Shown here: piece after piece, positions 1,857-57,523 of the stretch | Layout: each line of letters starts with the position of its first letter | How positions within the stretch are numbered: position 1 is the stretch's first letter | Sequence record: OR780565.1 | Direction: 5' to 3' (one strand) | Length of the DNA stretch: 64,000 bases | Source: Escherichia phage DCP2 | Notes under the pieces: model-generated | Told to the model about the DNA's origin: nothing | What the model saw: the letters and a program-made list of their open reading frames with translations, nothing else | The model's database searches: none | Program-made: the position numbers and the translations under genes

Positions 1857-1886
1857 GTTTACTTTCTCAGCTTGCTGTGGTATTAT
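1857..1886 (+). promoter_or_regulatory. T4-type early promoter
   Basis: GTTTAC 1857-1862, TATTAT 1881-1886, 18-bp spacer, upstream of ORF at 1912. Confidence 0.5.
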
Positions 1887-1911
1887 AAAATAAACTGCTG
1901 AGGATAATATA

Positions 1912-3251
<1,340 letters not shown>

Positions 3252-4497: not shown

Positions 4498-4502
4498 ATT
4501 CA

Positions 4503-4528: not shown

Positions 4529-4537
4529 ATTTTACCG

Positions 4538-4567: not shown

Positions 4568-4593
4568 AAAATTATCTTATAGAGGAGAGCACT

Positions 4594-5144: not shown

Positions 5145-5152
5145 GGAAAATT

Positions 5153-5638: not shown

Positions 5639-5816
5639 ATGGTTCAATAGACCAAACTCAATGTACATTGATGATGGTTGGGTTGAACAAGCAAATAAAG
5701 AAATGCAGAACGAATCGGAAGAATGGATGAAATCAATGATTAGTGCTGAGAAAGAAAAGAAATTAGAACGCTCAGCGCTTAAATTGATGAGAGATATCTA
5801 TGGGGATAAATCATGA
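5613..5816 (+). CDS. hypothetical protein (67 aa; start may be ATG 5631)
   Basis: ORF track; overlaps previous ORF; Lys/Glu-rich. Confidence 0.4.
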
Positions 5817-5977
5817 ACAGAGATATGACGCTAGAAGAGGCCAAGGCTAAAGCAAATGAAGCACTGGATTTGCTTCTTAAAATTGGCAGTAAAATGATGG
5901 AAGAAAATGAGAAATATATCCAGGAAAACAAAATTCCTGACGGCCCATTAGTAGGCAAAAGGAAATCACATGATTGA
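5813..5977 (+). CDS. hypothetical protein (54 aa)
   Basis: ATGA overlap with preceding stop; below ORF-track size cutoff. Confidence 0.4.
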
Positions 5978-6440
5978 AGTAGCAAAACATTATTCAATAG
6001 AATTTATGTCTAAAGAAGGTAAATCAGTAAATGCACTTGATAAAAAATGCTCATTAATTATTCCTTTAGCAGAAAATCCGGATCTTTTAATTAAAGATAT
6101 AAAAGAAAGAAAATATCCAGAAAATGTTATTCTAATTATAAAGCATACTGAAGATATTTTACAGAATACTGATTCACCGTTTTCTTCTTCTGAAGCTTTA
6201 ACTATTAAAGGCTATAAAAGAGCTCATGAATATGGTCTTTTTGACCTGTTTGAAGATGATAAAGTTAAATTAGCGAGTCAACCTTTTAAAAGTAAAACAT
6301 TCATTATTGAAGATATTAAAGATATAAATGCATTTGTTAAGATGGTCTGGGCTCATTTTGATGTTGGACTACGCTGGAGAATGTCTGAAGAAGAAAGAAA
6401 GATTATTGAAGCTAATCGTCAATTTGGTTTTTATCGCTAG
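5970..6440 (+). CDS. hypothetical protein (156 aa)
   Basis: ORF track, ATG start, coupled to neighbours. Confidence 0.5.
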
Positions 6441-6448
6441 GAATTAGT

Positions 6449-6631
6449 ATGGATTTATTTGAGATGTTAGAAGATAATCATTCTACGAATATCCAGAATG
6501 ATTCTAGTGATTATAAGAAAGAATACCGTATAGTATTACAGAATTATGGAATTGAAGCCCCAGATGCTCTTCTAGAAGAACTAGCTTCATACCATCTTGA
6601 CCCTCCGCCCTGGGCTCCCTGGGCAAAATAA
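6449..6631 (+). CDS. hypothetical acidic protein (60 aa)
   Basis: ORF track, ATG start. Confidence 0.4.
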   Translation: MDLFEMLEDNHSTNIQNDSSDYKKEYRIVLQNYGIEAPDALLEELASYHLDPPPWAPWAK

Positions 6632-6642
6632 TTCAAAAAGTT

Positions 6643-6672
6643 GTTTACTTTCCTTCCTAACAATGATATGAT
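6643..6672 (+). promoter_or_regulatory. T4-type early promoter
   Basis: GTTTAC 6643-6648, TATGAT 6667-6672. Confidence 0.5.
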
Positions 6673-6698
6673 AGCTTCTGAAGTATATGGAGGCTATC

Positions 6699-7322
6699 AT
6701 GATTATTAATCTTGCAGATGTTGAACAGTTATCTATAAAAGCTGAAAGTGTCGATTTTCAATATGATATGTATAAAAAAGTCTGTGAAAAATTTACTGAC
6801 TTTGAACAATCAGTTCTTTGGCAATGTATGGAAGCCAAAAAGAATGAAGCTCTTCATCGGCAGTTGAATAAAATCGTTAAAAAGCATTTAACTAAATCAC
6901 CTTATCAGCTATATCGTGGTATATCAAAATCGACAAAAGAGCTCATTAAAGATTTACAAGTTGGAGAAGTGTTTTCAACGAATAGAGTAGATTCATTTAC
7001 TACTAGTTTGCACACAGCGTGCGGTTTTTCTTATGTTGAGTATTTCACTGAAATAATATTTCGCTTAAAAACTGATAAAGCTTTTAATTACTCTGACCAT
7101 ATCAGCGATATTATACTTTCTTCTCCTAATACTGAGTTTAAGTATACATATGAAGATACTGATGGATTAGATTCAGAACGTACTGATAACTTAATGATGA
7201 TTGTGCGTGAACAAGAATGGATGATTCCAATTGGAAAGTATAGAATAACTTCTATTTCAAAAGAAAAATTACACGATTCATTTGGAACATTTAAAGTGTA
7301 TGATATTGAGGTAGTTGAATGA
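6699..7322 (+). CDS. modB: ADP-ribosyltransferase ModB (207 aa)
   Basis: R-S-E ART motifs (LYRGIS, FSTNRV, REQEWMIP); ATG 6699 with GGAGG SD gives 207 aa as in T4 ModB. Confidence 0.75.
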   Translation: MIINLADVEQLSIKAESVDFQYDMYKKVCEKFTDFEQSVLWQCMEAKKNEALHRQLNKIVKKHLTKSPYQLYRGISKSTKELIKDLQVGEVFSTNRVDSFTTSLHTACGFSYVEYFTEIIFRLKTDKAFNYSDHISDIILSSPNTEFKYTYEDTDGLDSERTDNLMMIVREQEWMIPIGKYRITSISKEKLHDSFGTFKVYDIEVVE

Positions 7323-7921
7323 AATATTCAGCAATGCAATTAAAAGATTTTAAAATCAAATCAATGGATGCATCGGTGCGTGCTTCTATTCGTGAAGAAT
7401 TACTTTCTGAAGGATTTAATTTATCTGAAATTGAACTTTTAATTCATTGTATTACTAATAAGCCAGACGACCACTCTTGGTTAAATGAAATAATCAAATC
7501 TCGTTTGGTTCCAAACGATAAACCTCTTTGGAGAGGTGTTCCAGTTGAGACTAAGCAGGTGTTAAATCAAGGAATTGATATTATTACATTTGATAAAGTA
7601 GTATCAGCTTCATATGATAAAAATATAGCTCTACATTTTGCTTCTGGATTAGAATACAATACACAAGTTATTTTTGAATTCAAAGCTCCTATGGTATTTA
7701 ATTTTCAGGAGTATGCTATAAAAGCTCTACGTTGTAAAGAATATAGTCCGAGTTTTAAATTTCCAGATAGCCATCGCTATCGTAATATGGAATTAGTTTC
7801 AGATGAACAAGAAGTAATGATACCAGCTGGAAGTGTATTTAGAATTGCGGATAGATATGAGTATAAAAAGTATTCAACATACACTATCTATACTCTTGAT
7901 TTTGAAGGATTTAATCTATAA
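7319..7921 (+). CDS. modA: ADP-ribosyltransferase ModA (200 aa)
   Basis: R-S-E ART motifs (PLWRGVP, VSASYD, EQEVMIPAG); 200 aa as in T4 ModA. Confidence 0.75.
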   Translation: MKYSAMQLKDFKIKSMDASVRASIREELLSEGFNLSEIELLIHCITNKPDDHSWLNEIIKSRLVPNDKPLWRGVPVETKQVLNQGIDIITFDKVVSASYDKNIALHFASGLEYNTQVIFEFKAPMVFNFQEYAIKALRCKEYSPSFKFPDSHRYRNMELVSDEQEVMIPAGSVFRIADRYEYKKYSTYTIYTLDFEGFNL

Positions 7922-7977
7922 TGGAAGGACTTAGATTCATTATACCATGAAAGTTTTAAAGCATTTTTCATAAAGTT

Positions 7978-8008
7978 GTTTACAAGCTGAAGTAAAAATG
8001 ATATAGTA
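7978..8008 (+). promoter_or_regulatory. T4-type early promoter
   Basis: GTTTAC 7978-7983, TATAGT near 8003-8008. Confidence 0.45.
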
Positions 8009-8036
8009 TAAGTAGTTAACCGTCCGTGAGAAAAAT

Positions 8037-8783
8037 ATGAAACTGTCTAAAAATCAAATTCGTAAAATTACACGTCGTTTAGAGCATACTCAGGCATCAG
8101 CTAAAAGACGTTCTAAAGATTTTAACTTAGACTTCAATTACATTAAGAACATTTTAGATCAGAAAGTTTGCGCTTACTCAGGAGAACCTTTTGATAATCG
8201 TATTGAAGGAGAGAAATTATCGTTAGAACGTTTTGATAATAACGTTGGATACATTAAAGGGAATGTTATTGCAGTAAAGAAAAAGTATAATACATTTCGT
8301 TCTGATTATACTTTAGAAGAGTTGATTGAAAAGCGTGATTTATTTGCTTTGCGAATTGGTCGTTCATCTGCGAAAAAAGTTCATAAACTAAATTTAGATG
8401 AAAAGAAATGGGCTAAAATCAAAAAGACTTATAATCAAATTAAAGCTATACAGAAAAAACGCGAAAACCGAATTGAGCACATTTCTCAGCTTTCTAAATC
8501 AAAACAAACTTCTGACGTTAAGCTAACGATTATAGCACTTAAAGCTCGTATTGATGGTTCTCGTATAGCAGAAGGCGCTGAAGTTGTTAAATTGAACGTT
8601 CTTCTTAAAGGCTCGGATTGGAAAACTGTGAAAAAGTTGTCAGAAGCAGAAATGCAATATGATATGTGTGATAAAATTATTCAAGGTGTAGAGCGGTATC
8701 AAAACTTGTCTTTTATTGATAAACTTAAACTGAAAAGAGGATACCCGCTAAATTGTTCAATTTTTAAACTTATCCGAGGATAA
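8037..8783 (+). CDS. srd: Srd-like basic protein (248 aa)
   Basis: Size and position (between modA and dda.1) match T4 srd; assignment positional. Confidence 0.55.
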   Translation: MKLSKNQIRKITRRLEHTQASAKRRSKDFNLDFNYIKNILDQKVCAYSGEPFDNRIEGEKLSLERFDNNVGYIKGNVIAVKKKYNTFRSDYTLEELIEKRDLFALRIGRSSAKKVHKLNLDEKKWAKIKKTYNQIKAIQKKRENRIEHISQLSKSKQTSDVKLTIIALKARIDGSRIAEGAEVVKLNVLLKGSDWKTVKKLSEAEMQYDMCDKIIQGVERYQNLSFIDKLKLKRGYPLNCSIFKLIRG

Positions 8784-8784
8784 T

Positions 8785-9096
8785 ATGTTTTATGTATATG
8801 CGATAGTGTATAGAGATAAAGATGGATTTGCGGTGCCTGTTCCTCTTGATGAACATCGTCCTGCTATATTTTTTGAAAGGGAGATTGCTGATAAAGTATT
8901 TACAACTCTTAAAGAGCAGTATCAACTAGCTTTAGGTATGGGAATTCCGAGATTAGTCGAGACTCCACGCAAGTTTTGGTTTAATAAAATAGAAGTTAAA
9001 CATGTTAAGCCTGATGTAGACACACAAAGATTATATCGGCGAATTTTAGATACTGGGCGTATTGTTAGTATACCAATTGCAGGGAATTTACGATGA
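8785..9096 (+). CDS. hypothetical protein (103 aa, dda.1 position)
   Basis: ORF track; coupled to dda. Confidence 0.5.
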   Translation: MFYVYAIVYRDKDGFAVPVPLDEHRPAIFFEREIADKVFTTLKEQYQLALGMGIPRLVETPRKFWFNKIEVKHVKPDVDTQRLYRRILDTGRIVSIPIAGNLR

Positions 9097-10412
9097 CATT
9101 TGATGATTTGACCGAAGGCCAGAAAAATGCCTTTAACATTGTTATGAGGGCTATTAAAGAAAAGAAACATCATGTAACTATTAATGGACCTGCTGGTACT
9201 GGTAAGACTACTCTTACTAAGTTCATCATTGAAGCTTTAATATCTACGGGCGAAACTGGCATTATTTTAGCAGCTCCTACTCATGCAGCTAAAAAGATTC
9301 TTTCAAAACTATCAGGGAAAGAAGCGAGTACTATTCACAGTATTCTTAAAATTAACCCTGTAACATATGAAGAAAACGTTCTTTTTGAACAAAAAGAAGT
9401 ACCGGATTTGGCTAAATGCAGAGTATTAATCTGTGACGAAGTGTCAATGTATGATAGAAAGCTATTTAAAATTCTGCTTTCAACTATCCCGCCATGGTGT
9501 ACTATAATTGGAATAGGCGATAATAAGCAAATTAGACCTGTTGACCCAGGAGAAAATACTGCTTATATCAGTCCATTTTTTACGCACAAAGATTTTTATC
9601 AGTGTGAACTCACTGAAGTTAAACGCAGTAATGCTCCTATTATTGATGTAGCTACTGATGTTCGTAACGGTAAGTGGATTTATGATAAAATTATTGATGG
9701 GCATGGAGTACGTGGATTTACCGGTGATACCGCTTTACGCGATTTTATGGTAAATTATTTTTCAATCGTAAAATCACTAGATGATTTGTTTGAAAATCGT
9801 GTGATGGCATTTACGAATAAATCTGTTGATAAGTTAAATAGCATTATTCGTAAAAAGATTTTTGAAACTGATAAAGATTTTATTGTCGGTGAAATTATTG
9901 TAATGCAGGAACCATTAATTAAAACATATAAAATTGATGGAAAGCCTGTGTCAGAAATTATTTTTAATAACGGACAATTAGTTCGTATTATAGAAGCAGA
10001 GTATACATCAACATTTGTTAAAGCTCGTGGTGTTCCTGGAGAATATCTAATTCGTCATTGGGATTTAACAGTAGAAACTTACGGCGATGATGAATATTAT
10101 CGTGAAAAGATTAAAATAATTTCATCTGATGAAGAGCTGTATAAGTTTAACCTATTTTTAGGTAAAACTGCAGAAACTTACAAAAATTGGAATAAAGGCG
10201 GAAAGGCTCCATGGAGTGATTTTTGGGATGCTAAATCACAGTTTAGTAAAGTGAAAGCACTTCCTGCATCAACATTCCATAAAGCTCAGGGTATGTCTGT
10301 AGATCGTGCTTTCATCTATACACCTTGTATTCATTATGCAGATGCTGAACTAGCACAGCAGCTTCTTTATGTTGGTGTCACTCGTGGTCGTTATGATGTG
10401 TTTTACGTATGA
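9093..10412 (+). CDS. dda: Dda DNA helicase (SF1B, 439 aa)
   Basis: MTFDDLTEGQKNAFNIVMRAI... Walker A GPAGTGKT; 439 aa as in T4 Dda. Confidence 0.95.
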   Translation: MTFDDLTEGQKNAFNIVMRAIKEKKHHVTINGPAGTGKTTLTKFIIEALISTGETGIILAAPTHAAKKILSKLSGKEASTIHSILKINPVTYEENVLFEQKEVPDLAKCRVLICDEVSMYDRKLFKILLSTIPPWCTIIGIGDNKQIRPVDPGENTAYISPFFTHKDFYQCELTEVKRSNAPIIDVATDVRNGKWIYDKIIDGHGVRGFTGDTALRDFMVNYFSIVKSLDDLFENRVMAFTNKSVDKLNSIIRKKIFETDKDFIVGEIIVMQEPLIKTYKIDGKPVSEIIFNNGQLVRIIEAEYTSTFVKARGVPGEYLIRHWDLTVETYGDDEYYREKIKIISSDEELYKFNLFLGKTAETYKNWNKGGKAPWSDFWDAKSQFSKVKALPASTFHKAQGMSVDRAFIYTPCIHYADAELAQQLLYVGVTRGRYDVFYV

Positions 10413-10433
10413 TTAAATTTGAGGAAGCTATTC

Positions 10434-10679
10434 GTGGAAATAACTAAAGACCAGTTTTATCTACTTCAAGATAAAGTGAGCGAAATTTATGAAATAGCTT
10501 ATAGTAAAAATTGTACAAATGTAAAAATTAAATCAGGCAAGTTAATGCTTCAACTAGAAGAAATTGAACGAGATTTGATTGCGTTAGAATTCTTTTGTGG
10601 TGAAGTGAAAACTGTTACAATCAGTGATTACGTTTTAGGTGAAATTAGCCATCTTTATAAGGCGGTTATTAATGATTGA
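10434..10679 (+). CDS. hypothetical protein (probable GTG start; ORF track starts at TTG 10419)
   Basis: SD GAGGAAG at 10421-10427 then GTG 10434; no in-frame ATG near the 5' end. Confidence 0.4.
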   Translation: MEITKDQFYLLQDKVSEIYEIAYSKNCTNVKIKSGKLMLQLEEIERDLIALEFFCGEVKTVTISDYVLGEISHLYKAVIND

Positions 10680-10914
10680 ATTAAGTTTGCATCAGTTTAA
10701 ATCTCTTATGACAAATGTTAAAGCTGTCATTCAAGAAAATTCAGGACCTGATAATGTTACTATTCGCGAAAAAGCTTTAAAGATAGTATACAGTCTTGAA
10801 GAGATACAAAAAGATATTGAATCTATGGCAAAATTTATTGATGAGCCCATTAATAAAGTTTATATCCAAGATTATACTGTAGGTCAAATTCGCGATTTAG
10901 CGAGGAAAATTTAA
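10672..10914 (+). CDS. hypothetical protein (80 aa)
   Basis: ATG 10672 with SD AAGGCGG, overlapping preceding stop. Confidence 0.45.
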   Translation: MIELSLHQFKSLMTNVKAVIQENSGPDNVTIREKALKIVYSLEEIQKDIESMAKFIDEPINKVYIQDYTVGQIRDLARKI

Positions 10915-11597
10915 TGTTTGATTTTATTATAGATTTTGAAACAATGGGAAGCGGTGAAAAAGCAGCTGTTATTGATTTGGCTGTTATTGCCTTTGACCCT
11001 AACCCAGAAGTAGTTGAAACATTTGATGAATTAGTTTCACGCGGCATTAAAATCAAATTTGATTTAAAAAGCCAAAAAGGACAACGTCTTTTTACTAAAA
11101 GCACCATCGAATGGTGGAAAAATCAGTCTCCTGAAGCTCGAAAAAATATTGCACCGTCAGATGAAGATGTAAGCACTATCGATGGTATTGTAAAATTTAA
11201 TGATTATATCAATGCGCATAATATCGATCCTTGGAAATCTCAAGGCTGGTGTCGTGGAATGTCGTTTGATTTTCCAATTTTAGTCGATCTCATTCGCGAT
11301 ATTCAACGTCTTAATGGCGTTTCTGAGAATGAACTTGACACATTTAAGTTAGAACCATGTAAATTCTGGAATCAGCGTGATATTCGTACCAGAATTGAAG
11401 CACTTCTCCTTGTTCGTGATATGACCACGTGTCCTCTTCCAAAGGGAACTTTAGATGGATTCGTTGCACATGATTCTATTCATGACTGTGCGAAAGACAT
11501 CCTGATGATGAAGTATGCTTTGCGCTATGCTATGGGTCTTGAAGATGCTCCATCAGAGGAAGAATGCGATCCTCTGTCTCTTCCAACAAAACGATAA
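10914..11597 (+). CDS. dexA: exonuclease A DexA (227 aa)
   Basis: 227 aa as in T4 DexA; N-terminal DEDD-like FIIDFETMG; synteny next to dda. Confidence 0.85.
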   Translation: MFDFIIDFETMGSGEKAAVIDLAVIAFDPNPEVVETFDELVSRGIKIKFDLKSQKGQRLFTKSTIEWWKNQSPEARKNIAPSDEDVSTIDGIVKFNDYINAHNIDPWKSQGWCRGMSFDFPILVDLIRDIQRLNGVSENELDTFKLEPCKFWNQRDIRTRIEALLLVRDMTTCPLPKGTLDGFVAHDSIHDCAKDILMMKYALRYAMGLEDAPSEEECDPLSLPTKR

Positions 11598-11603
11598 AAA
11601 GTT

Positions 11604-11633
11604 GTTTACTTCCTCAGTTAGTTGTGGTATTAT
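11604..11633 (+). promoter_or_regulatory. T4-type early promoter embedded in an SD-sequestering inverted repeat
   Basis: GTTTAC 11604-11609, TATTAT 11628-11633; TCCTCAGT 11611-11618 pairs with ACTGAGGA 11646-11653. Confidence 0.55.
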
Positions 11634-11660
11634 AACACCATAGCTACTGAGGATAATAAA

Positions 11661-12161
11661 ATGAAAATTTATCGTGTTGAATCATCGTTTAGTATTCTTG
11701 ATTATGAAGATGCTATAACAATACGTCGAAATCTTTGTGTTCAAATAACGCCGTACAGGAGTATAATAGATTCATGGAGCGAAGAGTGGCTATTACACGT
11801 AGGTTATGACAGACCTAATTTTATGCATCATAGCGATAATAATAAAAGAATTCCTTTACCACACGAAGATAAACTATTAGTTAAAAACGCTAATATAGTA
11901 ATTAATACTAAGTTCAAGAAAGATTATGTTGGATTAGAATATCATATTCCAGGATGGTTTATAGCTCTTTATCATTTTGCTTTCGCTAGTGAATATGATA
12001 TGATGAGATGGTTCACACGAGAAGAGCGGGAAGAATTATCTTCTAAAGGATTTTATCTCGCTGTATACGAAGTTCCAGATGATCAAGTTATCATTGGCGG
12101 GCACCAAGTAATGTTCCGCAAATCGCATGCTGAACTCATAGATTTTATTGAAATGAGATAA
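11661..12161 (+). CDS. hypothetical protein (166 aa)
   Basis: ATG 11661 with SD GAGGA at 7 nt. Confidence 0.55.
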   Translation: MKIYRVESSFSILDYEDAITIRRNLCVQITPYRSIIDSWSEEWLLHVGYDRPNFMHHSDNNKRIPLPHEDKLLVKNANIVINTKFKKDYVGLEYHIPGWFIALYHFAFASEYDMMRWFTREEREELSSKGFYLAVYEVPDDQVIIGGHQVMFRKSHAELIDFIEMR

Positions 12162-12163
12162 TT

Positions 12164-12709
12164 ATGAAATTTAATTATAATCCTGAATACACACCAAATC
12201 CGGTAGCTAAACTGATTGATTTTGATGTTGTAAGCACTTATGTATGCCCTGTTAAACCACTGGAAATTAAGGAACCTACTATGACTACCACTATTGAAAT
12301 CGGCAAAACCTACAAACTGGTTGAACCTAAAATTAAAACTAATGCCTTGATTTCTGGTCATAAAACTCTGACTGATGTTTTTGGCGAAGGCGAATTTATT
12401 GTTGAAGAATTTGCCAAAAGTGAGTGGTTTGACAAATCTTACGTCATCCACAGTCGCCGGTTAGATAATAACAAAATAAAGAAAAACCTGGTTTATGAAG
12501 ATGAGTTCATCCTGTTCCAAGAAGTTGAAGAACAAGACCCTACAGACCTGTTGTGTGCTGCTGTGTCTATCCGTCGTCCTTTTGATAATCCTATCTGTGG
12601 TTGGGTAACAGACCAGTGGGTTGAAGACGGTGTTGAGCTTCTGAACGTTGTCCATGCAGGAGATTTTAGTGTAGTACCTCGTAGTGCGGTGGTAGCTATT
12701 TTAAATTAA
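12164..12709 (+). CDS. hypothetical protein (181 aa), paralog of the next ORF
   Basis: Shares C-terminal motif TDQWVEDGV-L-NVV...VP-S with ORF 12786-13274. Confidence 0.55.
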   Translation: MKFNYNPEYTPNPVAKLIDFDVVSTYVCPVKPLEIKEPTMTTTIEIGKTYKLVEPKIKTNALISGHKTLTDVFGEGEFIVEEFAKSEWFDKSYVIHSRRLDNNKIKKNLVYEDEFILFQEVEEQDPTDLLCAAVSIRRPFDNPICGWVTDQWVEDGVELLNVVHAGDFSVVPRSAVVAILN

Positions 12710-12785
12710 TAGTTTACAAACTCTTGGGACCAGAGTATAATGGTCCTGTGGAGTATAAAATCTTTTTAACAAGTGAGAGATAACT

Positions 12786-13274
12786 ATGATTATTAATATT
12801 GGTGAAATTGCTCGTGTATCTGATAAATCCCGTTCTAAAGCAGCAGGAAAATTGGTCGAAATTGCAAGCATTCAGCTTAAACATGGCGTTAAAGATGAAG
12901 ATTCTGAAGTAAAAGTGCGTATCATTCCTAAAGATGGAAAGTCTAAACCTCAGTTTGGCTATGTTCGTGCGAAATTTCTTGAATCTGCGTTTTTGAAAGC
13001 TGTTCCTGCTAAAGGAATTGAAACGATTGATACTTCACATGTAGGTGTAGACTTTAAGTGGAAACTCGGTCAGGCTATTAAGTTCATTGCTCCTCATGAA
13101 TTTAAATTTATCAAAGATGGTGGTGCGGCTGTTTATACTCGTGCTATGTGCGCATACATTACTGATCAGTGGGTAGAAGATGGTGTTAAGCTGTACAACG
13201 TGGTATTTTTAGGAACATACAAAGTCATTCCTGAAAGCTGGATTAAACACTATAGCAAAGCTCTCTATGCATAA
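12786..13274 (+). CDS. motB: hypothetical protein (162 aa; size and position of T4 MotB)
   Basis: 162 aa at the T4 motB position; symbol positional only. Confidence 0.45.
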   Translation: MIINIGEIARVSDKSRSKAAGKLVEIASIQLKHGVKDEDSEVKVRIIPKDGKSKPQFGYVRAKFLESAFLKAVPAKGIETIDTSHVGVDFKWKLGQAIKFIAPHEFKFIKDGGAAVYTRAMCAYITDQWVEDGVKLYNVVFLGTYKVIPESWIKHYSKALYA

Positions 13275-13304
13275 AGTTTAAAATTTTTTCATAAAACTAT
13301 ATAC

Positions 13305-13347
13305 ATCAGTAGTTGATTATGGTACTATATCAATATCAACTACTGAT
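13305..13347. repeat. 13-bp perfect inverted repeat ATCAGTAGTTGAT / ATCAACTACTGAT with 17-nt loop
   Basis: Arms at 13305-13317 and 13335-13347; loop holds a TGGTACTAT -10-like element. Confidence 0.85.
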
Positions 13348-13446
13348 ACAGAAAACAACTTAGAGAATAAAATGGAAAATTTGCCAAAGGTGCTGCTACT
13401 CTTCTGAAACGCATCACTCCAATGTTCAATTAATGAGGAAATTGTA

Positions 13447-13662
13447 ATGAAACGTAAAATTGTTCAGAACTGCACTAATGACGAATTTGAAGATGTATTA
13501 TTTGATCCAGATTTGGTAGTGGTTCAAAAAGAACATACCGTTAAGTTTACTCACTTGACTTCGGTTTATGTGTATGAAAAGGTTGGTGATAAACAACCAA
13601 TTTATGGCGTATTTCGTGAAATTACTGAAGATGGCACAACTTACTGGAAGGAAATTTATTAA
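13447..13662 (+). CDS. hypothetical protein (71 aa; size and position of T4 Cef)
   Basis: ORF track; ATG with SD GAGGAAA. Confidence 0.5.
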
Positions 13663-14081
13663 TGGCTATTAGATTTGAAGTTAATAAATGGTATCAATTT
13701 AAAAATAAACAAGCTCAAGAAAATTTTATTAAAGACCATACTGATAACAGAATCTATGCACGACGTTTAGGTATGGAACCTTTTAAAATTTTAGATGTTG
13801 ACTATTACGGGCGTCCTACTAAAATTGTGACATCTACTGGCATAATTGGATATTCAACATATGGTACAGTCATTGACGAAAACTTTATCTGGCTCTCTAC
13901 TAACGAAGCTGGGTTCTTTGATGAAGTGGAAAATCCATATCAGGTTGCTGAAGAACAAGAGCAGGAAGAGCAAGAACAAATAGAAGATTTCACAGAATTC
14001 CCGGTAATGAAAGTTACTATTGAAAATAATGAACAGGCATGGTCCTTGTATCAGATGTTGAAAGCACACTTTAAGGAATAA
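13662..14081 (+). CDS. hypothetical protein with acidic [10 protein letters not shown] stretch (139 aa; T4 goF position)
   Basis: ORF track; ATGA-type coupling to the preceding ORF. Confidence 0.5.
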
Positions 14082-14083
14082 TT

Positions 14084-14260
14084 ATGCCAATGTATGATTA
14101 TAAATGCCAATCCGAAGATTGTGGGCATGAATATGAAAAAATTAAAAAGATTTCTGAACGAGAAAATGATGTTTGCCCTAAATGTCATCGTTTGTCTACT
14201 CGTCGGCCTTCTGCTCCTAAGCATGTGAATGGTGGATTTTACGACTTACTTAAAGGGTAA
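14084..14260 (+). CDS. FmdB-like zinc-ribbon protein (58 aa)
   Basis: MPMYDYKCQSEDCGHEYE...CPKCH: two CxxC pairs with the MPxYxYxC N-terminus typical of FmdB-family zinc ribbons; SD AAGGAA. Confidence 0.55.
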   Translation: MPMYDYKCQSEDCGHEYEKIKKISERENDVCPKCHRLSTRRPSAPKHVNGGFYDLLKG

Positions 14261-14262
14261 TT

Positions 14263-14634
14263 ATGTTTAAAATTGGTAAGAAATATCGTGTTCGCGAAGG
14301 TGAAGAAAAGAAATATCTACTTTCTTCTATTTATAGGAATGGTTCTATTAATGCCGTAATATCTACAAGCGAATTTATCGTTGAAGATATGAAAGGCCAT
14401 AATGTTACAATGATTAGTACAGCATCTGGAAATGATGGAAAAATTCTTCACAGTTTTCAGAGTAATGTTCTAATTTATGATGAAGAATTTGACTTCTTCG
14501 AAGAAGTTCCTGAAGATTTTGATTTTGAATGCACTATCACTATGAAATCTGGTGACCCTCTTTCTTTTACAGTTAAAGATGAAAGAAGTCGCTTGAGAAT
14601 TATTAGTCTCCTTCAAGCCATTAAATTTGAGTGA
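14263..14634 (+). CDS. hypothetical protein (123 aa)
   Basis: ORF track, ATG start. Confidence 0.5.
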   Translation: MFKIGKKYRVREGEEKKYLLSSIYRNGSINAVISTSEFIVEDMKGHNVTMISTASGNDGKILHSFQSNVLIYDEEFDFFEEVPEDFDFECTITMKSGDPLSFTVKDERSRLRIISLLQAIKFE

Positions 14635-14899
14635 AATTATGAAATATGTTAATCGTTCTATCGCGGCATTAGTATTAGCAGTATCTTTAGTAGGATGTAC
14701 TGATGCTGATAATGCAACCAAAGTTTTGTCTTCAAGCGGTTTTACTAATATTGAAATCACTGGATATAATTGGTTCGGTTGCTCTGAAAATGATTTCCAA
14801 CATACTGGATTTCGTGCTATTGGACCTACCGGGCAGAAAGTAGAAGGAACAGTATGTTCTGGTCTATTCTTCAAGGATTCGACTATCCGTTTTAAATAA
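14627..14899 (+). CDS. putative lipoprotein (90 aa, lipobox LVGC)
   Basis: Signal peptide IAALVLAVSLVGCTDA. Confidence 0.5.
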   Translation: MSEIMKYVNRSIAALVLAVSLVGCTDADNATKVLSSSGFTNIEITGYNWFGCSENDFQHTGFRAIGPTGQKVEGTVCSGLFFKDSTIRFK

Positions 14900-14916
14900 A
14901 AGGCCTTCGGGCCTTT
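14899..14916 (+). terminator. terminator-like hairpin AAAGGCC-TTCG-GGCCTTT
   Basis: GC stem with TTCG loop after ORF stop; T-run interrupted. Confidence 0.4.
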
Positions 14917-14965
14917 AGCTTTATGATTACTGGAGTATAATATTCCCGAAACCAAACGAGGATAA

Positions 14966-16786
14966 GTGATGATTAAGAATGAAATTAAAATTCTGAGCGA
15001 TATTGAACATATCAAAAAGCGTAGCGGCATGTACATTGGTTCTTCTGCTAATGAAATGCATGAGCGCTTTCTGTTTGGTAAATGGGAAAGTGTTCAGTAT
15101 GTACCTGGTCTTGTTAAGCTTATTGATGAAATTATCGATAACTCAGTAGATGAAGGTATTCGTACTAAGTTTAAATTCGCAAATAAAATTAATGTTACCA
15201 TTAAAAATAATCAGGTAACAGTTGAAGATAACGGTCGTGGTATTCCACAGGCGATGGTTAAAACACCTACCGGTGAAGAAATTCCTGGTCCTGTTGCTGC
15301 CTGGACTATTCCAAAAGCAGGTGGTAACTTTGGTGATGATAAAGAACGCGTCACCGGCGGTATGAACGGTGTTGGTTCTAGTTTAACTAACATTTTTTCT
15401 GTGATGTTTGTCGGTGAAACTGGCGACGGTCAAAATAATATTGTGGTTCGCTGCTCGAATGGCATGGAAAATAAATCATGGGAAGATATTCCTGGAAAAT
15501 GGAAAGGAACTCGCGTTACTTTCATTCCTGATTTTATGTCATTTGAAACTAATGAGCTATCTCAAGTTTATCTTGACATTACACTAGATCGTCTCCAGAC
15601 ACTTGCGGTAGTTTATCCTGATATTCAATTTACCTTTAATGGTAAAAAGGTTCAGGGTAATTTTAAGAAATATGCACGCCAATATGATGAACATGCTATT
15701 GTTCAAGAACAAGAAAATTGTTCTATTGCGGTTGGTCGTTCACCGGATGGTTTTCGTCAATTAACATACGTCAATAACATTCATACTAAGAATGGTGGCC
15801 ATCACATTGACTGTGTTATGGATGATATTTGTGAAGACCTTATTCCACAAATCAAACGTAAATTCAAAATTGATGTAACTAAAGCACGTGTTAAAGAATG
15901 TTTGACTATCGTTATGTTTGTCCGTGATATGAAAAACATGCGATTTGATTCTCAAACTAAAGAGCGTTTGACTTCTCCATTTGGTGAAATTCGTAGTCAT
16001 ATTCAGCTTGATGCTAAAAAGATTTCACGTGCTATTTTGAATAATGAAGCAATTTTAATGCCAATCATTGAAGCTGCTTTGGCTCGTAAATTGGCGGCAG
16101 AAAAAGCAGCAGAAACTAAAGCAGCTAAAAAGGCTTCTAAAGCTAAGGTTCATAAACATATTAAAGCGAATCTTTGTGGTAAAGATGCTGACACTACTCT
16201 TTTCTTGACTGAGGGTGATTCTGCTATTGGATATCTTATTGATGTTCGTGATAAAGAACTTCATGGTGGTTATCCATTGCGTGGTAAAGTTCTTAACAGT
16301 TGGGGTATGTCATATGCTGATATGCTTAAAAACAAAGAACTATTTGATATTTGCGCAATCACTGGATTAGTTCTTGGTGAAAAAGCTGAAAACTTGAATT
16401 ATCATAATATTGCAATTATGACCGATGCTGACCATGATGGTCTAGGAAGCATTTATCCTTCTCTGCTCGGATTTTTTAGTAATTGGCCAGAATTGTTTGA
16501 ACAAGGAAGAATTCGCTTTGTCAAAACTCCTGTAATCATCGCTCAGGTAGGTAAAAAACAAGAATGGTTTTATACAGTCGCTGAATATGAGAGTGCTAAA
16601 GATGCTCTACCTAAACATAGCATCCGTTATATTAAGGGACTTGGCTCTTTGGAAAAATCTGAATATCGCGAGATGATTCAAAACCCAGTATATGATGTTG
16701 TTAAACTTCCTGAGAACTGGAAAGAGCTTTTTGAAATGCTCATGGGAGATAATGCTGACCTTCGTAAAGAATGGATGAGCCAGTAG
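14966..16786 (+). CDS. 39: DNA topoisomerase II large subunit gp39, contiguous (606 aa)
   Basis: GyrB-like ATPase N-terminus (MIKNEIKILSDIEHIKKRSGMYIGS), TOPRIM C-terminal part; single ORF, no gene 60 split. Confidence 0.93.
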   Translation: MMIKNEIKILSDIEHIKKRSGMYIGSSANEMHERFLFGKWESVQYVPGLVKLIDEIIDNSVDEGIRTKFKFANKINVTIKNNQVTVEDNGRGIPQAMVKTPTGEEIPGPVAAWTIPKAGGNFGDDKERVTGGMNGVGSSLTNIFSVMFVGETGDGQNNIVVRCSNGMENKSWEDIPGKWKGTRVTFIPDFMSFETNELSQVYLDITLDRLQTLAVVYPDIQFTFNGKKVQGNFKKYARQYDEHAIVQEQENCSIAVGRSPDGFRQLTYVNNIHTKNGGHHIDCVMDDICEDLIPQIKRKFKIDVTKARVKECLTIVMFVRDMKNMRFDSQTKERLTSPFGEIRSHIQLDAKKISRAILNNEAILMPIIEAALARKLAAEKAAETKAAKKASKAKVHKHIKANLCGKDADTTLFLTEGDSAIGYLIDVRDKELHGGYPLRGKVLNSWGMSYADMLKNKELFDICAITGLVLGEKAENLNYHNIAIMTDADHDGLGSIYPSLLGFFSNWPELFEQGRIRFVKTPVIIAQVGKKQEWFYTVAEYESAKDALPKHSIRYIKGLGSLEKSEYREMIQNPVYDVVKLPENWKELFEMLMGDNADLRKEWMSQ

Positions 16787-16815
16787 TTTACTTTACCACA
16801 AGGATGTGGTATAAT
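16786..16815 (+). promoter_or_regulatory. T4-type early promoter
   Basis: GTTTAC 16786-16791 overlapping gene 39 stop, TATAAT 16810-16815. Confidence 0.45.
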
Positions 16816-16840
16816 TAATTGGGCAAATGAGGATATTGAA

Positions 16841-17044
16841 ATGAAATCATATAAAGTAAATTTAGAACTTTTTGATAAAGCAGTTCACCGAGAATATAGA
16901 ATCATTCAACGCTTTTTCGATATGGGAGAAGCCGAAGAGTTTAAAAACCGCTTTAAGGATATTAGAGATAAAATTCAATCCGACACCGCAACCAAAGATG
17001 AATTACTAGAAGTTGCTGAAGTTATTAAACGCAATATGAATTAA
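16841..17044 (+). CDS. hypothetical protein (67 aa, rIIA.1 position)
   Basis: ORF track, ATG with SD GAGGA. Confidence 0.5.
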
Positions 17045-17054
17045 TGAGGAAATT

Positions 17055-19232
17055 ATGATTATCACCACTGAAAAAGAAACAATTCTTGGTAATGGTTCTA
17101 AATCAAAAGCATTTAGCATCACAGCATCTCCTAAAGTATTTAAAATTCTATCATCTGATTTGTATACAAACAAGATTCGCGCAGTAGTTCGTGAATTGAT
17201 TACCAACATGATTGATGCCCATGCTCTCAATGGAAATCCTGAAAAATTTATCATTCAAGTTCCAGGACGATTAGATCCGCGATTTGTTTGCCGAGATTTT
17301 GGTCCGGGTATGAGCGATTTTGATATTCAGGGTGATGATAATTCTCCTGGGTTGTATAATTCATACTTCAGTTCATCTAAGGCTGAATCTAACGATTTCA
17401 TTGGTGGATTTGGTTTAGGTTCTAAATCTCCGTTTAGTTATACTGATACGTTTAGTATTACTTCGTACCATAAAGGTGAAATTCGCGGTTATGTAGCTTA
17501 TATGGATGGTGACGGTCCGCAGATTAAACCTACATTCGTAAAAGAAATGGGTCCAGACGATAAAACTGGTATTGAAATCGTAGTTCCAGTTGAAGAAAAA
17601 GACTTTAGAAACTTTGCTTATGAAGTTTCTTATATCATGCGACCATTCAAAGATTTGGCTATCATTAATGGTCTTGACCGTGAAATTGATTATTTTCCGG
17701 ATTTTGATGACTATTACGGCGTAAATCCAGAAAGATACTGGCCAGATCGTGGTGGATTGTATGCTATCTATGGTGGTATTGTTTATCCTATTGATGGTGT
17801 TATTAGAGACCGTAACTGGTTAAGCATTCGCAATGAAGTGAATTATATTAAGTTTCCAATGGGTTCACTTGATATTGCTCCATCACGTGAGGCTCTTTCA
17901 CTAGATGATCGTACTCGTAAAAATATTATTGAGCGTGTTAAAGAGCTCAGTGAGAAGGCATTTAATGAAGATGTAAAACGATTTAAAGAATCTACATCTC
18001 CTCGTCATACATACCGTGAATTGATGAAGATGGGGTATTCTGCTCGAGATTATATGATTAGTAATTCGGTCAAATTCACGACTAAAAATCTGTCATATAA
18101 AAAGATGCAGAGCATGTTTGAACCTGACAGTAAGTTATGCAATGCAGGGGTTGTGTATGAAGTAAATCTTGACCCTCGACTGAAACGCATTAAGCAAAGT
18201 CATGAAACTTCAGCCGTTGCATCAAGTTATCGTCTGTTTGGTATTAACACAACAAAAATTAATATCGTTATTGATAATATTAAAAATCGTGTTAATATTG
18301 TCCGTGGATTAGCACGTGCGTTAGATGATAATGAATTTAATAACACCTTAAATATTCATCACAATGAACGCCTTTTGTTTATTAATCCGGAAGTAGAATC
18401 ACAGATTGATTTGCTTCCTGATATTATGGCAATGTTTGAAAGTGATGAAGTTAACATTCATTATTTGTCAGAAATTGAAGCTTTAGTTAAAAGTTATATT
18501 CCAAAGGCAGTAAAAAGTACAGCTCCTCGTCCTAAAGCTGCCACTGCATTTAAGTTTGAAATTAAAGACGGGCGCTGGGAAAAAGAGGAGTTGTTTACAC
18601 TTACGTCAGAAGCAGATGAAATTACTGGTTATGTAGCATACATGCATCGTTCTGATATTTTCTCTATGGATGGTACTACATCGCTTTGTCATCCATCTAC
18701 GAATATTTTGATTCGTATGGCTAATCTTATTGGCATTAATGAATTTTATGTTATTCGTCCGCTTTTGCAGAAAAAGGTAAAAGAACTTGGTCAGTGCCAA
18801 TGTATTTTTGAAACTTTGCGTGATTTATATGTAGATGCTTTTGATGATGTAGATTATGATAAGTATGTAGGTTATTCAAGTTCAGCTAAACGATATATTG
18901 ATAAAATTATCAAGTATCCTGAGTTAGATTTTATGATGAAGTACTTCAGTGTAGATGAAGTTTCCGAAGAATATACACGACTCGCTAATATGGTTAGTTC
19001 ATTACAGGGTGTATATTTTAATGGTGGAAAAGATACCATCGGTCATGACATCTGGACGGTAACTAATCTTTTTGATGTATTATCAAATAATGCTTCAAAA
19101 AACAGTGATAAAATGGTTGCTGAGTTTACCAAGAAATTCCGTATTGTTTCCGACTTCATCGGTTATCGCAACTCTTTAAGTGATGATGAAGTTTCCCAAA
19201 TCGCTAAAACTATGAAGGCCCTTGCGGCCTAA
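17055..19232 (+). CDS. rIIA: rIIA protein (725 aa)
   Basis: 725 aa as in T4 rIIA; N-terminus [20 protein letters not shown]; synteny with rIIB. Confidence 0.95.
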
Positions 19233-19243
19233 TAAGGAAAATT

Positions 19244-21571: not shown

Positions 21572-21601
21572 GTTTACAAGACTGTTCTTCCGTGGTACTA
21601 T
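21572..21601 (+). promoter_or_regulatory. T4-type early promoter with SD-sequestering inverted repeat
   Basis: GTTTAC 21572-21577, TACTAT 21596-21601; GTTCTTCC 21584-21591 pairs with GGAGGAAC 21617-21624 (one G-U). Confidence 0.5.
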
Positions 21602-21629
21602 TACCCTATCAACTACGGAGGAACAGAAA

Positions 21630-21743
21630 ATGAAAAAGATTGTTAAAGCTATATGGAATGTAGTTATAATACTAGTAGTTTTGAGTATATTCCTAATCGT
21701 TTTAATGATTGATGTATTAAACGCTTACTTTGGATTTATGTGA
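21630..21743 (+). CDS. small hydrophobic peptide (37 aa)
   Basis: ATG 21630 with SD GGAGG at 8 nt; single TM segment. Confidence 0.4.
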   Translation: MKKIVKAIWNVVIILVVLSIFLIVLMIDVLNAYFGFM

Positions 21744-50935: not shown

Positions 50936-50965
50936 GTTTACAAGTCCCTCGTGTTGTGTTATAGT
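50936..50965 (+). promoter_or_regulatory. T4-type early promoter with SD-sequestering inverted repeat
   Basis: GTTTAC 50936-50941, TATAGT 50960-50965; AAGTCCCTC 50942-50950 pairs with GAGGACTT 50985-50992. Confidence 0.5.
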
Positions 50966-50996
50966 AGTCTTACTGACATAACATGAGGACTTTATG

Positions 50997-57133: not shown

Positions 57134-57163
57134 GTTTACAGTATGGTTCCTTTGTGATAGTAT
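57134..57163 (+). promoter_or_regulatory. T4-type early promoter with SD-sequestering inverted repeat
   Basis: GTTTAC 57134-57139, TAGTAT 57158-57163; TCCTTTG 57148-57154 pairs with CAAAGGA 57177-57183. Confidence 0.5.
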
Positions 57164-57190
57164 TATCTTACACAAACAAAGGAGAATAAA

Positions 57191-57523
57191 ATGAAAACGA
57201 TTAATCTGAACGCTGCAGTTAAAACTAAATGCTTCAATGGTAAATATGATGAAACTATGTGGTTCTTAATGGCAGTTGAAGGTGATATTATTGAAGTAGA
57301 AACAACAGAAGGTATGGGAACAGATTTCACCTTTACAATTCAAGTTCATAATTTCTTTACTGGTTGGATTTATGAATTGAATACAGTAATCGTTGGAAAA
57401 ATTGAACAAAATGAATTAGGTGAATGGTATTATGTTACAGCTCGCCAACGTGCCGAACGCTTAATTGAGAAGATGAAAAAAGTTGGTAAACTTGACATGC
57501 AGCATTGGAAAGTAGTAAAATAA
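57191..57523 (+). CDS. hypothetical protein (110 aa)
   Basis: ATG with SD AAGGAG. Confidence 0.5.
   Translation: MKTINLNAAVKTKCFNGKYDETMWFLMAVEGDIIEVETTEGMGTDFTFTIQVHNFFTGWIYELNTVIVGKIEQNELGEWYYVTARQRAERLIEKMKKVGKLDMQHWKVVK

Follow-up and report, generated by a model that had tools for sequence, protein, structure and literature searches.

Hairpins that pair early-promoter spacers with downstream Shine-Dalgarno sequences in Escherichia phage DCP2: candidate translational insulators

The window analysed here is a stretch of 64,000 nucleotides of Escherichia phage DCP2 (sequence record OR780565.1), which is assigned to Tequatrovirus with about 98% identity to Escherichia phages AV121 and D5505. 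Strict early promoters of the form GTTTAC-N17/18-TAnnnT occur 19 times on the + strand of this window and not once on the - strand, and early transcription follows the + strand. Each of the 19 promoters is followed, 19-43 nt downstream, by a Shine-Dalgarno sequence (SD) and an ATG. Transcription was taken to start 7 nt after the end of the -10 box, a rule that reproduces the promoter name Pe133295 in the T4 record, and the start sites in DCP2 are positions predicted by it. No Rfam family matched at the gathering score on either strand of the whole window.

The early promoter of motB.2 (a gene name taken from the T4 annotation) lies at 11604..11633 on the + strand, with the -35 box GTTTAC at 11604-11609, an 18-nt spacer and the -10 box TATTAT at 11628-11633; transcription is predicted to start near 11640 and the start codon is at 11661. 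Judged by its coordinate, this promoter is probably the orthologue of the T4 promoter P8.1. The spacer contains tcctcagt (11611-11618), a perfect 8-bp complement of actgagga (11646-11653), and the stem extends to 17 pairs with one bulge. Its left arm (11611-11628) lies in the spacer; the SD GAGGA (11649-11653) forms the end of its right arm (11637-11653). The stop codon of dexA forms part of an outer helix. RNA that reads through from upstream has a minimum free energy of -32.4 kcal/mol (z -8.35), and opening the ribosome binding site (RBS) costs 16.0 kcal/mol in this RNA versus 2.3 kcal/mol in RNA that begins at the local promoter.

The same arrangement, always on the + strand, is found at five further promoters. 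In the alc cassette (50936..50996; -35 box 50936-50941, -10 box 50960-50965, ATG 50994) aagtccctc (50942-50950) pairs with gaggactt (50985-50992) with one bulged C, and the stem extends from a left arm of 50942-50960 to a right arm that ends at 50992 and covers the SD GAGGA; the read-through RNA folds at -28.8 kcal/mol (z -3.77) and the gain in RBS opening is 15.1 kcal/mol. Upstream of a small ndd.4-like ORF (21572..21632; -35 box 21572-21577, -10 box 21596-21601, ATG 21630) gttcttcc (21584-21591) and ggaggaac (21617-21624) form the core of a 15-bp stem (21582-21596 / 21612-21626) over the SD GGAGGA, with a read-through RNA of -22.9 kcal/mol (z -3.65) and a gain of 17.4 kcal/mol (spacer-shuffle p=0.002), as compared to 15.3 kcal/mol for the T4 orthologue. 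The gene 30.8 cassette (57134..57193; -35 box 57134-57139, -10 box 57158-57163, ATG 57191) has a perfect 7-bp repeat, tcctttg (57148-57154) and caaagga (57177-57183), extended to 9 bp (57147-57155 / 57176-57184) over the SD AGGAG; here the read-through RNA folds at -18.9 kcal/mol (z -3.05) and the gain is 10.5 kcal/mol (spacer-shuffle p=0.018).

The weakest case is the cassette at 1857..1914 (-35 box 1857-1862, -10 box 1881-1886), which precedes an ORF with its ATG at 1912. Its repeat, ttctcagc (1864-1871) and gctgagga (1897-1904), has 7 Watson-Crick pairs and one G·U pair, the read-through RNA reaches -14.1 kcal/mol (z -1.72; spacer-shuffle p=0.06), and the gain of 8.2 kcal/mol varies between 5.6 and 8.7 kcal/mol depending on context. 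This cassette (cagC/Gctg) and that of motB.2 (cagT/Actg) are paralogues that differ by a compensatory change. A query of IMG/VR with the ORF returned three loci only, i.e. no orthologue series is at hand for this cassette.

[quoted passage not shown] The promoter of modB, absent from that original prediction, is a sixth case with the same logic (6643..6707; -35 box 6643-6648, -10 box TATGAT at 6667-6672, ATG 6699). Its left arm (6662-6679) runs across the -10 box as far as the start site, and its right arm (6689-6707) covers both the SD GGAGG (6689-6693) and the ATG. The gain is 12.2 kcal/mol, as compared to 14.5 kcal/mol for modB of T4, and the fold has a z-score of -3.39.

The two types of RNA differ clearly in their folding. 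At the six loci, opening the RBS in the long RNA costs 8.7-18.3 kcal/mol, and the local RNAs of the five loci predicted beforehand, starting 7 nt after the -10 box, fold at only 0 to -2.6 kcal/mol. The claim that occlusion depends on the transcript thus agrees with the folding results: the RBS is 8-17 kcal/mol costlier to open in the read-through RNA and essentially free in the local RNA. At five of the six loci the gain persists when as much as 300 nt of upstream sequence is included.

Chance complementarity has to be considered, as does a feature of the DNA itself such as a cruciform or a requirement of the promoter spacer, since short runs of pyrimidines are no rarity in AT-rich DNA and the locus at 1857 is not significant when taken alone. 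We regard such readings as extremely improbable. A gain of at least 8 kcal/mol is found at 6 of the 19 early promoters versus 2 of 53 control gene starts (Fisher p=0.003), and the top scorer among the controls is soc, a known T4 case, so the folding method recovers a true positive. When promoters and leaders were swapped, the non-cognate combinations reached 8 kcal/mol in 5% of cases; the observed count has p=2e-4 in the swap permutation and the observed mean was reached in none of 20,000 permutations. Shuffling of the spacer gave p<=0.02 at 7 of the 19 promoters. These tests, together with the strong covariation across genera described below, already contradict chance and a DNA-level origin. 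The observation of SD-sequestering hairpins at early promoters is therefore confirmed. Their use had been called systematic, and this is correct in so far as they recur, at 6 of 19 promoters here and at 11 of 35 in T4 (mrh.2 barely reaching the threshold of 8 kcal/mol), but overstated in that about a third of the promoters, not all of them, are concerned.

The stems also carry the mark of selection on one strand. Their G·U pairs exist in the sense transcript only, and in a test in which stems were selected symmetrically the sense RNA was more stable than the antisense RNA in 21 of 23 strong stems, the reverse being found in none. The mean difference between sense and antisense is -4.2 kcal/mol, as compared to -0.95 kcal/mol for shuffled spacers. 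Since the stems rely on sense-only G·U pairs, selection acts on the RNA, and the strand asymmetry rules out a DNA cruciform as well as an antisense RNA. The loops, 8-15 nt at the four loci where they were measured and about 50 nt in one orthologue, likewise argue against a cruciform.

Covariation of the arms in relatives, whose absence had been named in advance as a refuting observation, was found and is strong in alc of seven lineages. When the sequences were aligned from the -35 box, each with a single fitted offset, pairing was seen in 79 of 87 stem cells and changes on both sides in 9 of 11 columns; the controls with slid partners had 37-49% paired cells and 0-3 such columns. The arms differ and yet remain complementary in Tequatrovirus, the IMG/VR lineage L016/L022, Karamvirus/Moonvirus, Roskildevirus, Klebsiella phage Mexia and JS98-like phages. 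Swap tests, which need no alignment, point in the same direction: arms exchanged between orthologues pair significantly worse than the cognate arms, whose pairing was reached by 0 of 20,000 permutations. In nine alc promoter regions MAFFT with RNAalifold found no consensus stem, the right arms being out of register. Compensatory pairing is also observed in the arms of motB.2 and 30.8, which covary as those of alc do. The motB.2 arms tcctcagt/actgagga of DCP2 correspond to ttctcctcatg/catgaggagaa in JS98-like phages and to ttctcctctggtt/aaccagaggagaa in a Mosigvirus relative, and in the JS98-like 30.8 orthologue tctccggt pairs with actggaga across the loop of about 50 nt. The right arm is kept on the SD even in leaders of 42-50 nt; the SD is the target of this arm. 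The alc hairpin is dispensable, since several orthologues, those of Mosigvirus, Ac42, Acj9 and Nanhuvirus, do without it.

It is useful to compare these cassettes to the PeSL elements of RB49/phi1, PST/T4 and nt-1/KVP40. In both, a strong sigma-70-like early promoter with AT-rich sequence upstream of it is combined with a stem-loop, an SD and an ATG; PeSL cassettes are moreover repeated around the genome, some of them duplicated, and adjoin variable ORFs. PeSL have been assigned the roles of a terminator or attenuator and of a recombination site, and RBS occlusion is not among the published functions (Arbiol 2010; Comeau 2014). The hairpins described here could accordingly be the attenuating or terminating half of a mobile cassette that would stop transcription arriving from upstream, the conserved cassette being a site of recombination by which genes are shuffled; in this case the coverage of the SD would be incidental to short leaders. 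A promoter-embedded stem-loop of RB49/phi1 indeed cut lacZ expression as much as rrnB T1 did (PMC2839356), cassettes are duplicated in T4 (alc/alt.-3 and dmd/mobD.2) as well as in DCP2 (1857/11604, the former flanking an ORF that is not in T4), and with leaders of about 28 nt the right arm will touch the SD with a roughly even chance. There is, in addition, a second class of hairpins in DCP2, at 12712, 54242 and 57526, that straddle the -10 box, the right arm following directly after the box and leaving the SD free. This class equals the SD class in significance and covariation, occurs in T4 too, dominates among the promoters of RB49, and has the stem position of the RB49 PeSL type.

The SD class does not share that position, since the SD itself serves as its 3' arm, 25-50 nt past the 5' arm. 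Published PeSL stems lie upstream of the -35 box, over it, between the boxes, over the -10 box or just after it, and those of PST/T4 are drawn upstream of the promoter; none of these five subclasses places an arm on the SD. Wherever an alc lineage has a hairpin, the right arm is on the SD, and it is kept there also in long leaders where other positions are open. Recombination would need identity between cassettes, whereas the double changes conserve complementarity within cassettes, and no U-tract follows the SD-class stems. Intrinsic termination was rejected on this last ground, the sequence after all stems other than that of modB being A-rich; in a terminator scan of positions 1-20000 the modB stem was the sole one of the SD class to be flagged, under a lenient rule and owing to its ATTATTAATC tail. 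On balance we consider an origin as a PeSL-type element unlikely for the SD class, although it is the least unlikely of the alternatives. The -10 class, since it leaves the SD free, indicates that hairpins in read-through RNA are selected for more than SD occlusion.

The reading that we prefer, with a probability of roughly 0.6, is that the SD-class hairpins work on the RNA as translational insulators built into the promoter, and follow the logic of T4 e and soc at early sigma-70 promoters. [quoted passage not shown] Local initiation about 7 nt after the -10 box would then give a transcript in which the anti-SD arm is absent and the RBS is open, whereas transcripts from upstream early or middle promoters would carry both arms, the hairpin folding once the SD is synthesised and leaving the downstream gene untranslated on read-through RNA. 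Protein synthesis would be confined to the period in which the gene's own early promoter fires, and the genes concerned, i.e. alc, modB, motB.2, 30.8 and small ORFs of the ndd region, would constitute an immediate-early-only set. In T4 the hairpin genes also include regB, denV, nrdC.8, e.8 and alt.-3, which would belong to the same set. The idea that translation is tied to the choice of promoter, as originally put forward, is supported, all of its computational predictions on geometry, folding and covariation having held.

The amount of read-through and its effect on translation are inferred. In T4, middle promoters have been mapped upstream of each hairpin gene (Hinton 2010 Table 1), so read-through RNA is to be expected. 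The intervals from dexA to motB.2 and from rnlA to alc contain no terminator. At 57134 read-through may be limited, since the -35 box there is preceded, at a distance of about 30 nt, by a strong intrinsic terminator, and another terminator is possibly present upstream of 1857. The stop codons of dexA and rnlA are 13 nt and 9 nt, respectively, before the left arms of motB.2 and alc, and ribosomes that terminate this close to the arm might partly open the stem. One could go further and suppose that the hairpins serve translational coupling, so that the downstream gene on a polycistronic RNA needs ribosomes of the upstream ORF to melt the stem, as would suit the inclusion of the dexA stop codon in the outer helix of motB.2. 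A terminating ribosome, however, reaches about 10 nt past the stop codon, too short a distance to open most of the stem, and at 6643, 57134 and 1857 the nearest upstream stop codon on the + strand is at least 33 nt away or absent. Coupling thus appears quite improbable.

The closest relatives of the proposed insulators in terms of mechanism are the T4 genes e, soc, 49 and I-TevI, whose long transcripts are silent and whose proximal transcripts are translated (PMC3014915). In these genes, too, the SD and/or the AUG is paired with sequence further upstream, and transcription from the proximal promoter begins within the 5' arm or past it; a stable helix over the SD is found at all six DCP2 loci, with predicted starts past or within the 5' arm. 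The soc gene is itself present in the window (ATG at 4252), where it scored like the early cases. The inner promoter of the T4 genes is late (TATAAATA) and expression is delayed until late, whereas the inner promoter in DCP2 is of the early sigma-70 type with the anti-SD in its spacer, and the predicted effect is reversed, restricting expression to the first minutes. The scale differs as well, 11 of 35 early promoters in T4 as opposed to four named genes of the e/soc type.

A second parallel is provided by sigma-54 promoters of E. coli such as glnKp, where CT-rich anti-SD insulators have been demonstrated by mutation (Levy et al., bioRxiv 10.1101/086108). There as well, a pyrimidine motif encoded in the promoter pairs with the downstream SD and silences read-through transcripts only. 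These are host promoters whose motifs measure 3-5 nt and lie no more than 25 nt from the SD, and covariation has not been reported for them, while the phage promoters are of the sigma-70 type and have stems of 8-17 bp and loops of 15-50 nt.

The RegB nuclease shares with the hairpins its site, the GGAG/GGAU of early SDs, and its outcome, the end of early protein synthesis, but it acts in trans, whereas the hairpin is a cis structure specific to one type of transcript. This overlap raises the question of whether the hairpin merely shields the SD from RegB, or AU-rich promoter RNA from RNase E, so that polycistronic read-through RNAs would escape cutting at these junctions, with the integrity of the mRNA as the selected trait. 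RNA structure does protect from RegB, and most middle transcripts that carry GGAG are resistant (PMC3014915). Five of the six hairpin SDs described here contain GGAG or GGAU, and regB of T4 itself has one of the strongest hairpins (18 pairs). The SD of alc in Tequatrovirus, GAGGAC, on the other hand, has no RegB motif, and its stem is nevertheless among the strongest and the best covarying; GGAG/U is about equally common at promoters that have no hairpin (7 of 13). A sequestered SD is in any case untranslatable regardless of cleavage, i.e. protection would be an added effect and not an alternative. As the sole explanation we hold it to be rather unlikely, a little more so than the PeSL-type origin.

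We also propose, more tentatively and at somewhat less than even odds, that the promoter-embedded insulators form a genome-wide, individually tuned code in the Tevenvirinae, in which each spacer would be complementary either to the SD of its gene or to the nucleotides directly following the -10 box, so that the protein output of each early gene would be set by its own promoter alone. Synthesis of the SD-class proteins (alc, modB, regB, denV, motB.2 and others), as the immediate-early-only set, would then end when the early promoters are shut off, despite continued transcription in the middle mode, and the hairpins would contribute to shut-off in cis alongside RegB. Although early gene expression in T4 is a textbook system, the waning of early protein synthesis is attributed to a shut-off of early promoters that is described as "not completely understood" (PMC3014915). 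If the proposal is true, a cis structure that silences a third of the early genes on all transcripts except their own would be a testable part of this process, the protein patterns of immediate-early and delayed-early genes would find an explanation at the level of translation, and a part of the PeSL stem-loops would have to be read differently. The covariation of the arms across at least eight genera offers a ready-made series of natural mutants, and anti-SD arms encoded in the spacer could serve synthetic biology as a compact design rule for promoters that are proof against read-through. A full-text search of the literature found no description of SD hairpins at early promoters; older subscription works (Liebig and Rüger 1989; Mosig; the 1994 T4 book) may mention single cases.

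In three relatives the best matches have no cd.2 promoter upstream of them. In RB49, of which 50 kb were analysed, the SD is sequestered at 1 of 14 promoters, and this one is again modB, where GCCTCC and GGAGGC are arranged in a geometry like that of modB in DCP2.

The window belongs to Tequatrovirus (about 98% identity to Escherichia phages AV121 and D5505 with a 2-kb probe) and is oriented in the direction of early transcription; the strict early promoter pattern GTTTAC-N17/18-TAnnnT has 19 matches on the + strand and none on the - strand. Gene names were taken from a comparison with the T4 record, and promoters are named by the position of their -35 box. The five inverted repeats of the original prediction are, on direct reading of the sequence, where it had placed them, and in each the left arm lies within the -35/-10 spacer and the right arm over the Shine-Dalgarno sequence (SD) of the next gene. 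Most of the stems are longer than first described; we find 17 pairs at promoter 11604 upstream of motB.2 (11611-11628/11637-11653), 15 bp at 21572 upstream of a small ndd.4-like ORF (21582-21596/21612-21626), about 18 pairs at 50936 upstream of alc (50942-50992) and 9 bp at 57134 upstream of 30.8 (57147-57155/57176-57184), all on the + strand. The fifth promoter, 1857 (+ strand), precedes a 186-aa ORF (1912-2472), a gene absent from T4.

Read-through RNA, i.e. RNA that comes from an upstream promoter and contains both arms, was folded from 20 nt 5' of the -35 box to 14 nt beyond the A of ATG. The minimum free energies are -14.1, -32.4, -22.9, -28.8 and -18.9 kcal/mol at 1857, 11604, 21572, 50936 and 57134 (z-scores -1.72, -8.35, -3.65, -3.77 and -3.05, respectively), whereas local RNAs starting 7 nt past the -10 box fold with 0 to -2.6 kcal/mol, which is the difference between the two kinds of 5' end that had been proposed. 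The rule for the predicted start (end of the -10 box +7) is not arbitrary, since it gives the coordinate in the T4 promoter name Pe133295. At motB.2 the read-through RNA has in addition an outer 8-bp helix (11591-11598/11668-11675), in which ACGATAAA, containing the dexA stop codon, pairs with TTTATCGT in motB.2 codons 3-6, so that the entire promoter and ribosome-binding site (RBS) are surrounded; in JS98-like phages the outer helix is retained as TCGATAAA/TTTATCGA, with both sides changed.

The cost of opening the RBS (the free energy needed to make positions -14 to +2 single-stranded) was computed in read-through and local RNA for all 19 promoters. The extra cost in read-through RNA, or gain, is at least 8 kcal/mol at six of them, namely 1857 (8.2), 6643 (12.2), 11604 (13.7), 21572 (17.4), 50936 (15.1) and 57134 (10.5); three others gain 3-6 kcal/mol and the remaining ten less than 3 kcal/mol. 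Promoter 6643 (+ strand), upstream of modB, is a case that the original prediction did not list, with a left arm that covers the -10 box and extends to the start site. When promoters and leaders were swapped, 5% of the 342 non-cognate pairs attained 8 kcal/mol, while five of the six cognate pairs placed first of 19 (permutation p=2e-4 for the count; 0 of 20,000 permutations attained the cognate mean). Control gene starts on the + strand attained this level in 2 of 53 cases (Fisher p=0.003). The top control is soc (gain 10.3 kcal/mol; window 4205-4254, ATG 4252), where the late promoter TATAAATA stands just 5' of the hairpin catgtaatt/aattacatg over the start codon. As soc is known from T4 for having its late promoter within an RBS hairpin (PMC3014915), the measure recovers a known positive. 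Shuffling of the 18-nt spacer gave p<=0.02 at 7 of 19 promoters in the window and 14 of 35 in T4. Chance complementarity is ruled out by the swap, control-gene and shuffle tests and by covariation. The gain withstands the addition of up to 300 nt of upstream sequence; the exception is 1857, the sole weak member among the six loci, where the gain falls to 5.6-6.8 kcal/mol. The 1857 and motB.2 cassettes are paralogous, and their stems differ by a compensatory C-G vs T-A; the ORF of the 1857 cassette and an opposite-strand 66-aa ORF (1607-1807) lie in the interval from gene 61 to dam, which in T4 is a gap of only 310 bp. IMG/VR yielded no more than three related loci.

Absence of covariation between the arms in relatives had been named as grounds for refutation, but the alc arms differ between genera and yet remain complementary: aagtccctcgtgtt/aacatgaggactt in Tequatrovirus, atctccgtttRgtt/aaccaaacggagat in two IMG/VR genomes (L016 and L022), tctccatttggtt/aaccaaatggaga in Karamvirus and Moonvirus, tctcctcag/ctgaggaga in Roskildevirus, atcctcatcag/ctgatgaggat in Klebsiella phage Mexia, tctcctcatg/catgaggaga in JS98-like phages and, with modB geometry, tataatgacc/ggtcattatg in Gualtarvirus. 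With the left arm anchored on the -35 box and one fitted offset per sequence, 79 of 87 cells in the first 11 stem positions are paired and both sides have changed in 9 of 11 columns; sliding the partner by 1-3 columns leaves 37-49% paired and 0-3 such columns. When upstream and downstream halves were exchanged among orthologues, the mean gain fell from 9.3 to 4.2 kcal/mol; 0 of 20,000 permutations attained the cognate mean. Among the alc orthologues compared, the hairpin is absent in Mosigvirus, Ac42, Acj9 and Nanhuvirus. The motB.2 arms are ttctcctcatg/catgaggagaa in JS98-like phages and ttctcctctggtt/aaccagaggagaa in a Mosigvirus relative, with a -10-to-start geometry in Kanagawavirus, and the 30.8 arms in JS98-like phages are tctccggt/actggaga with a loop of about 50 nt. 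RB49 modB (9420-9482) has the SD hairpin GCCTCC/GGAGGC with its left arm between the -10 box and the start site, so RBS sequestration at modB is shared by T4 and Krischvirus although their arm sequences are unrelated.

The stems are rich in G·U pairs, each of which would give a C·A mismatch in the opposite strand. Among 23 strong stems, selected symmetrically on the better of sense and antisense energies, 21 are stabler in sense RNA and none in antisense (mean difference -4.2 kcal/mol; -0.95 in shuffled spacers). This bias and the loops of 8-50 nt contradict a cruciform or an antisense transcript and place selection on the sense read-through RNA.

The SD-hairpin design is a property of T4-type phages beyond the window. 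In the complete T4 genome the gain is at least 8 kcal/mol at 11 of the 35 strict early promoters for which a start codon could be recognised (ndd.4, alc, 30.8, alt.-3, e.8, denV, regB with an 18-pair stem, nrdC.8, mrh.2 at exactly 8.0, modB and motB.2). The design is therefore recurrent, but the "systematic" use first proposed extends to only about a third of early promoters (6/19 in the window, 11/35 in T4). The T4 promoters of alc (136336) and alt.-3 (123093) are copies of one cassette with identical spacer and SD arms, and dmd and mobD.2 share another, so promoter, hairpin and SD appear to move as a unit. In three close relatives (L027, L033 and L034) the gene that matches best lacks the cd.2 early promoter (window 54242; T4 Pe133295) on its 5' side, and a different coding sequence abuts that gene; this may mean that a cassette was gained or lost, or that the match is a paralogue.

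There are two discrete classes of spacer complementarity, with no intermediates even among long leaders. Besides the class with the right arm over the SD, there is one in which the right arm begins at the first base past the -10 hexamer, so that the -10 box is looped out and the SD is free. The latter is found on the + strand of the window at 12712-12765 (motB), 54242-54290 (cd.2) and 57526-57575 (30.7), with p 0.002-0.01 against spacer shuffles, and in T4 at ipI, ipII, dmd, mobD.2, 30.7 and motB. This class, which covaries at motB (gggaCc/gGtcc in the window vs gggaGc/gCtcc in a JS98-like genome), matches the "stem-loop overlapping the -10" of the promoter-early stem-loop (PeSL) cassettes of RB49/phi1, which Arbiol et al. 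read as attenuators because one of them cut lacZ expression as far as a strong terminator (PMC2839356). In 50 kb of RB49 the -10 class predominates, and the SD is sequestered at modB only and not at the other 13 promoters examined. The two classes are interchangeable at a single gene, since 30.7 has the -10 class in the window and the SD class in Karamvirus. About 40% of early promoters are thus under selection for a hairpin specific to read-through RNA, and for about half of them SD occlusion is evidently the mechanism; a plausible shared purpose of both classes would be to insulate each gene from upstream transcription. The window cassettes match the PeSL unit (PMC2839356), but reading the SD hairpins as attenuators or recombination elements leaves unexplained why evolution has kept the complementarity and not the sequence of the arms, and why the right arm follows the SD; the stems also lack a U-tract.

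In T4, each hairpin gene has at least one experimentally mapped middle promoter upstream of it: Pdex.2 and Pdda.1 for motB.2, PnrdA, PnrdB and PI-TevIII for alc, P31 for 30.8, P56/69 for modB, Pvs.7 for regB and PipIII for denV (Hinton 2010 Table 1). No terminator was found between dexA and the motB.2 promoter or between rnlA and the alc promoter, and the dexA and rnlA stop codons precede the -35 box by 6 and 3 nt. Translational coupling to the upstream ORF is allowed by geometry at alc and motB.2 only. We infer the abundance of read-through RNA, which may be small at 57134, just 3' of a strong terminator; this hairpin (GGACTCCTTCGGGAGTCC plus T-run) occurs at 4502-4523 and again at 57086-57105, about 15-30 nt 5' of the early promoters of mrh.2 and 30.8, and corresponds to the stem-loop drawn upstream of the promoter in PST/T4 PeSLs.

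Most likely, the hairpin acts as a promoter-embedded translational insulator. The anti-SD arm is encoded in the promoter spacer and, with the predicted start sites, is present only in RNAs begun further upstream, in which the SD is locked in a helix costing 9-18 kcal/mol to open. Given the general relation of RBS stability to translation initiation reportedly described by de Smit and van Duin, translation should then fall by orders of magnitude, while locally initiated RNAs are unstructured and would be fully translatable. The computations show the hairpins, their formation in read-through but not local RNA, and their upkeep in evolution, while the start sites and the drop in translation are predicted; the interpretation first offered is supported as far as computation goes. 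Proteins of the hairpin genes would be made only while early promoters fire, which fits Alc, ModB and T4 RegB as products that may plausibly need tight limits; RegB production "must be tightly regulated" (PMC3014915). Shielding of the SD from RegB is compatible as a side effect, but this fails for alc, whose SD contains no GGAG/U, and hairpin promoters carry the motif no more often than others do.

The logic is the same as in T4 e, soc, 49 and I-TevI (PMC3014915) and in the CT-rich insulators of E. coli sigma-54 promoters (bioRxiv 10.1101/086108). What appears to be new is that the inner promoter is of the early sigma-70 type with the anti-SD in its spacer, that an SD hairpin is present at about a third of the early promoters of T4, and that the arms covary over at least 8 genera. 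No description of early-promoter SD hairpins was found in the full-text literature searched, older T4 papers may mention single cases, and Rfam gave no family matches in the window. The insulator hypothesis is directly testable in T4, the best-studied phage.

The annotated T4 ndd.4 start (166764) reads ACG in the window phage (21612-21632), and the ATG 15 nt 3' of it is conserved and preceded by GGAGGA at good spacing (T4 166749-166764); in both phages translation more likely begins at the downstream ATG.
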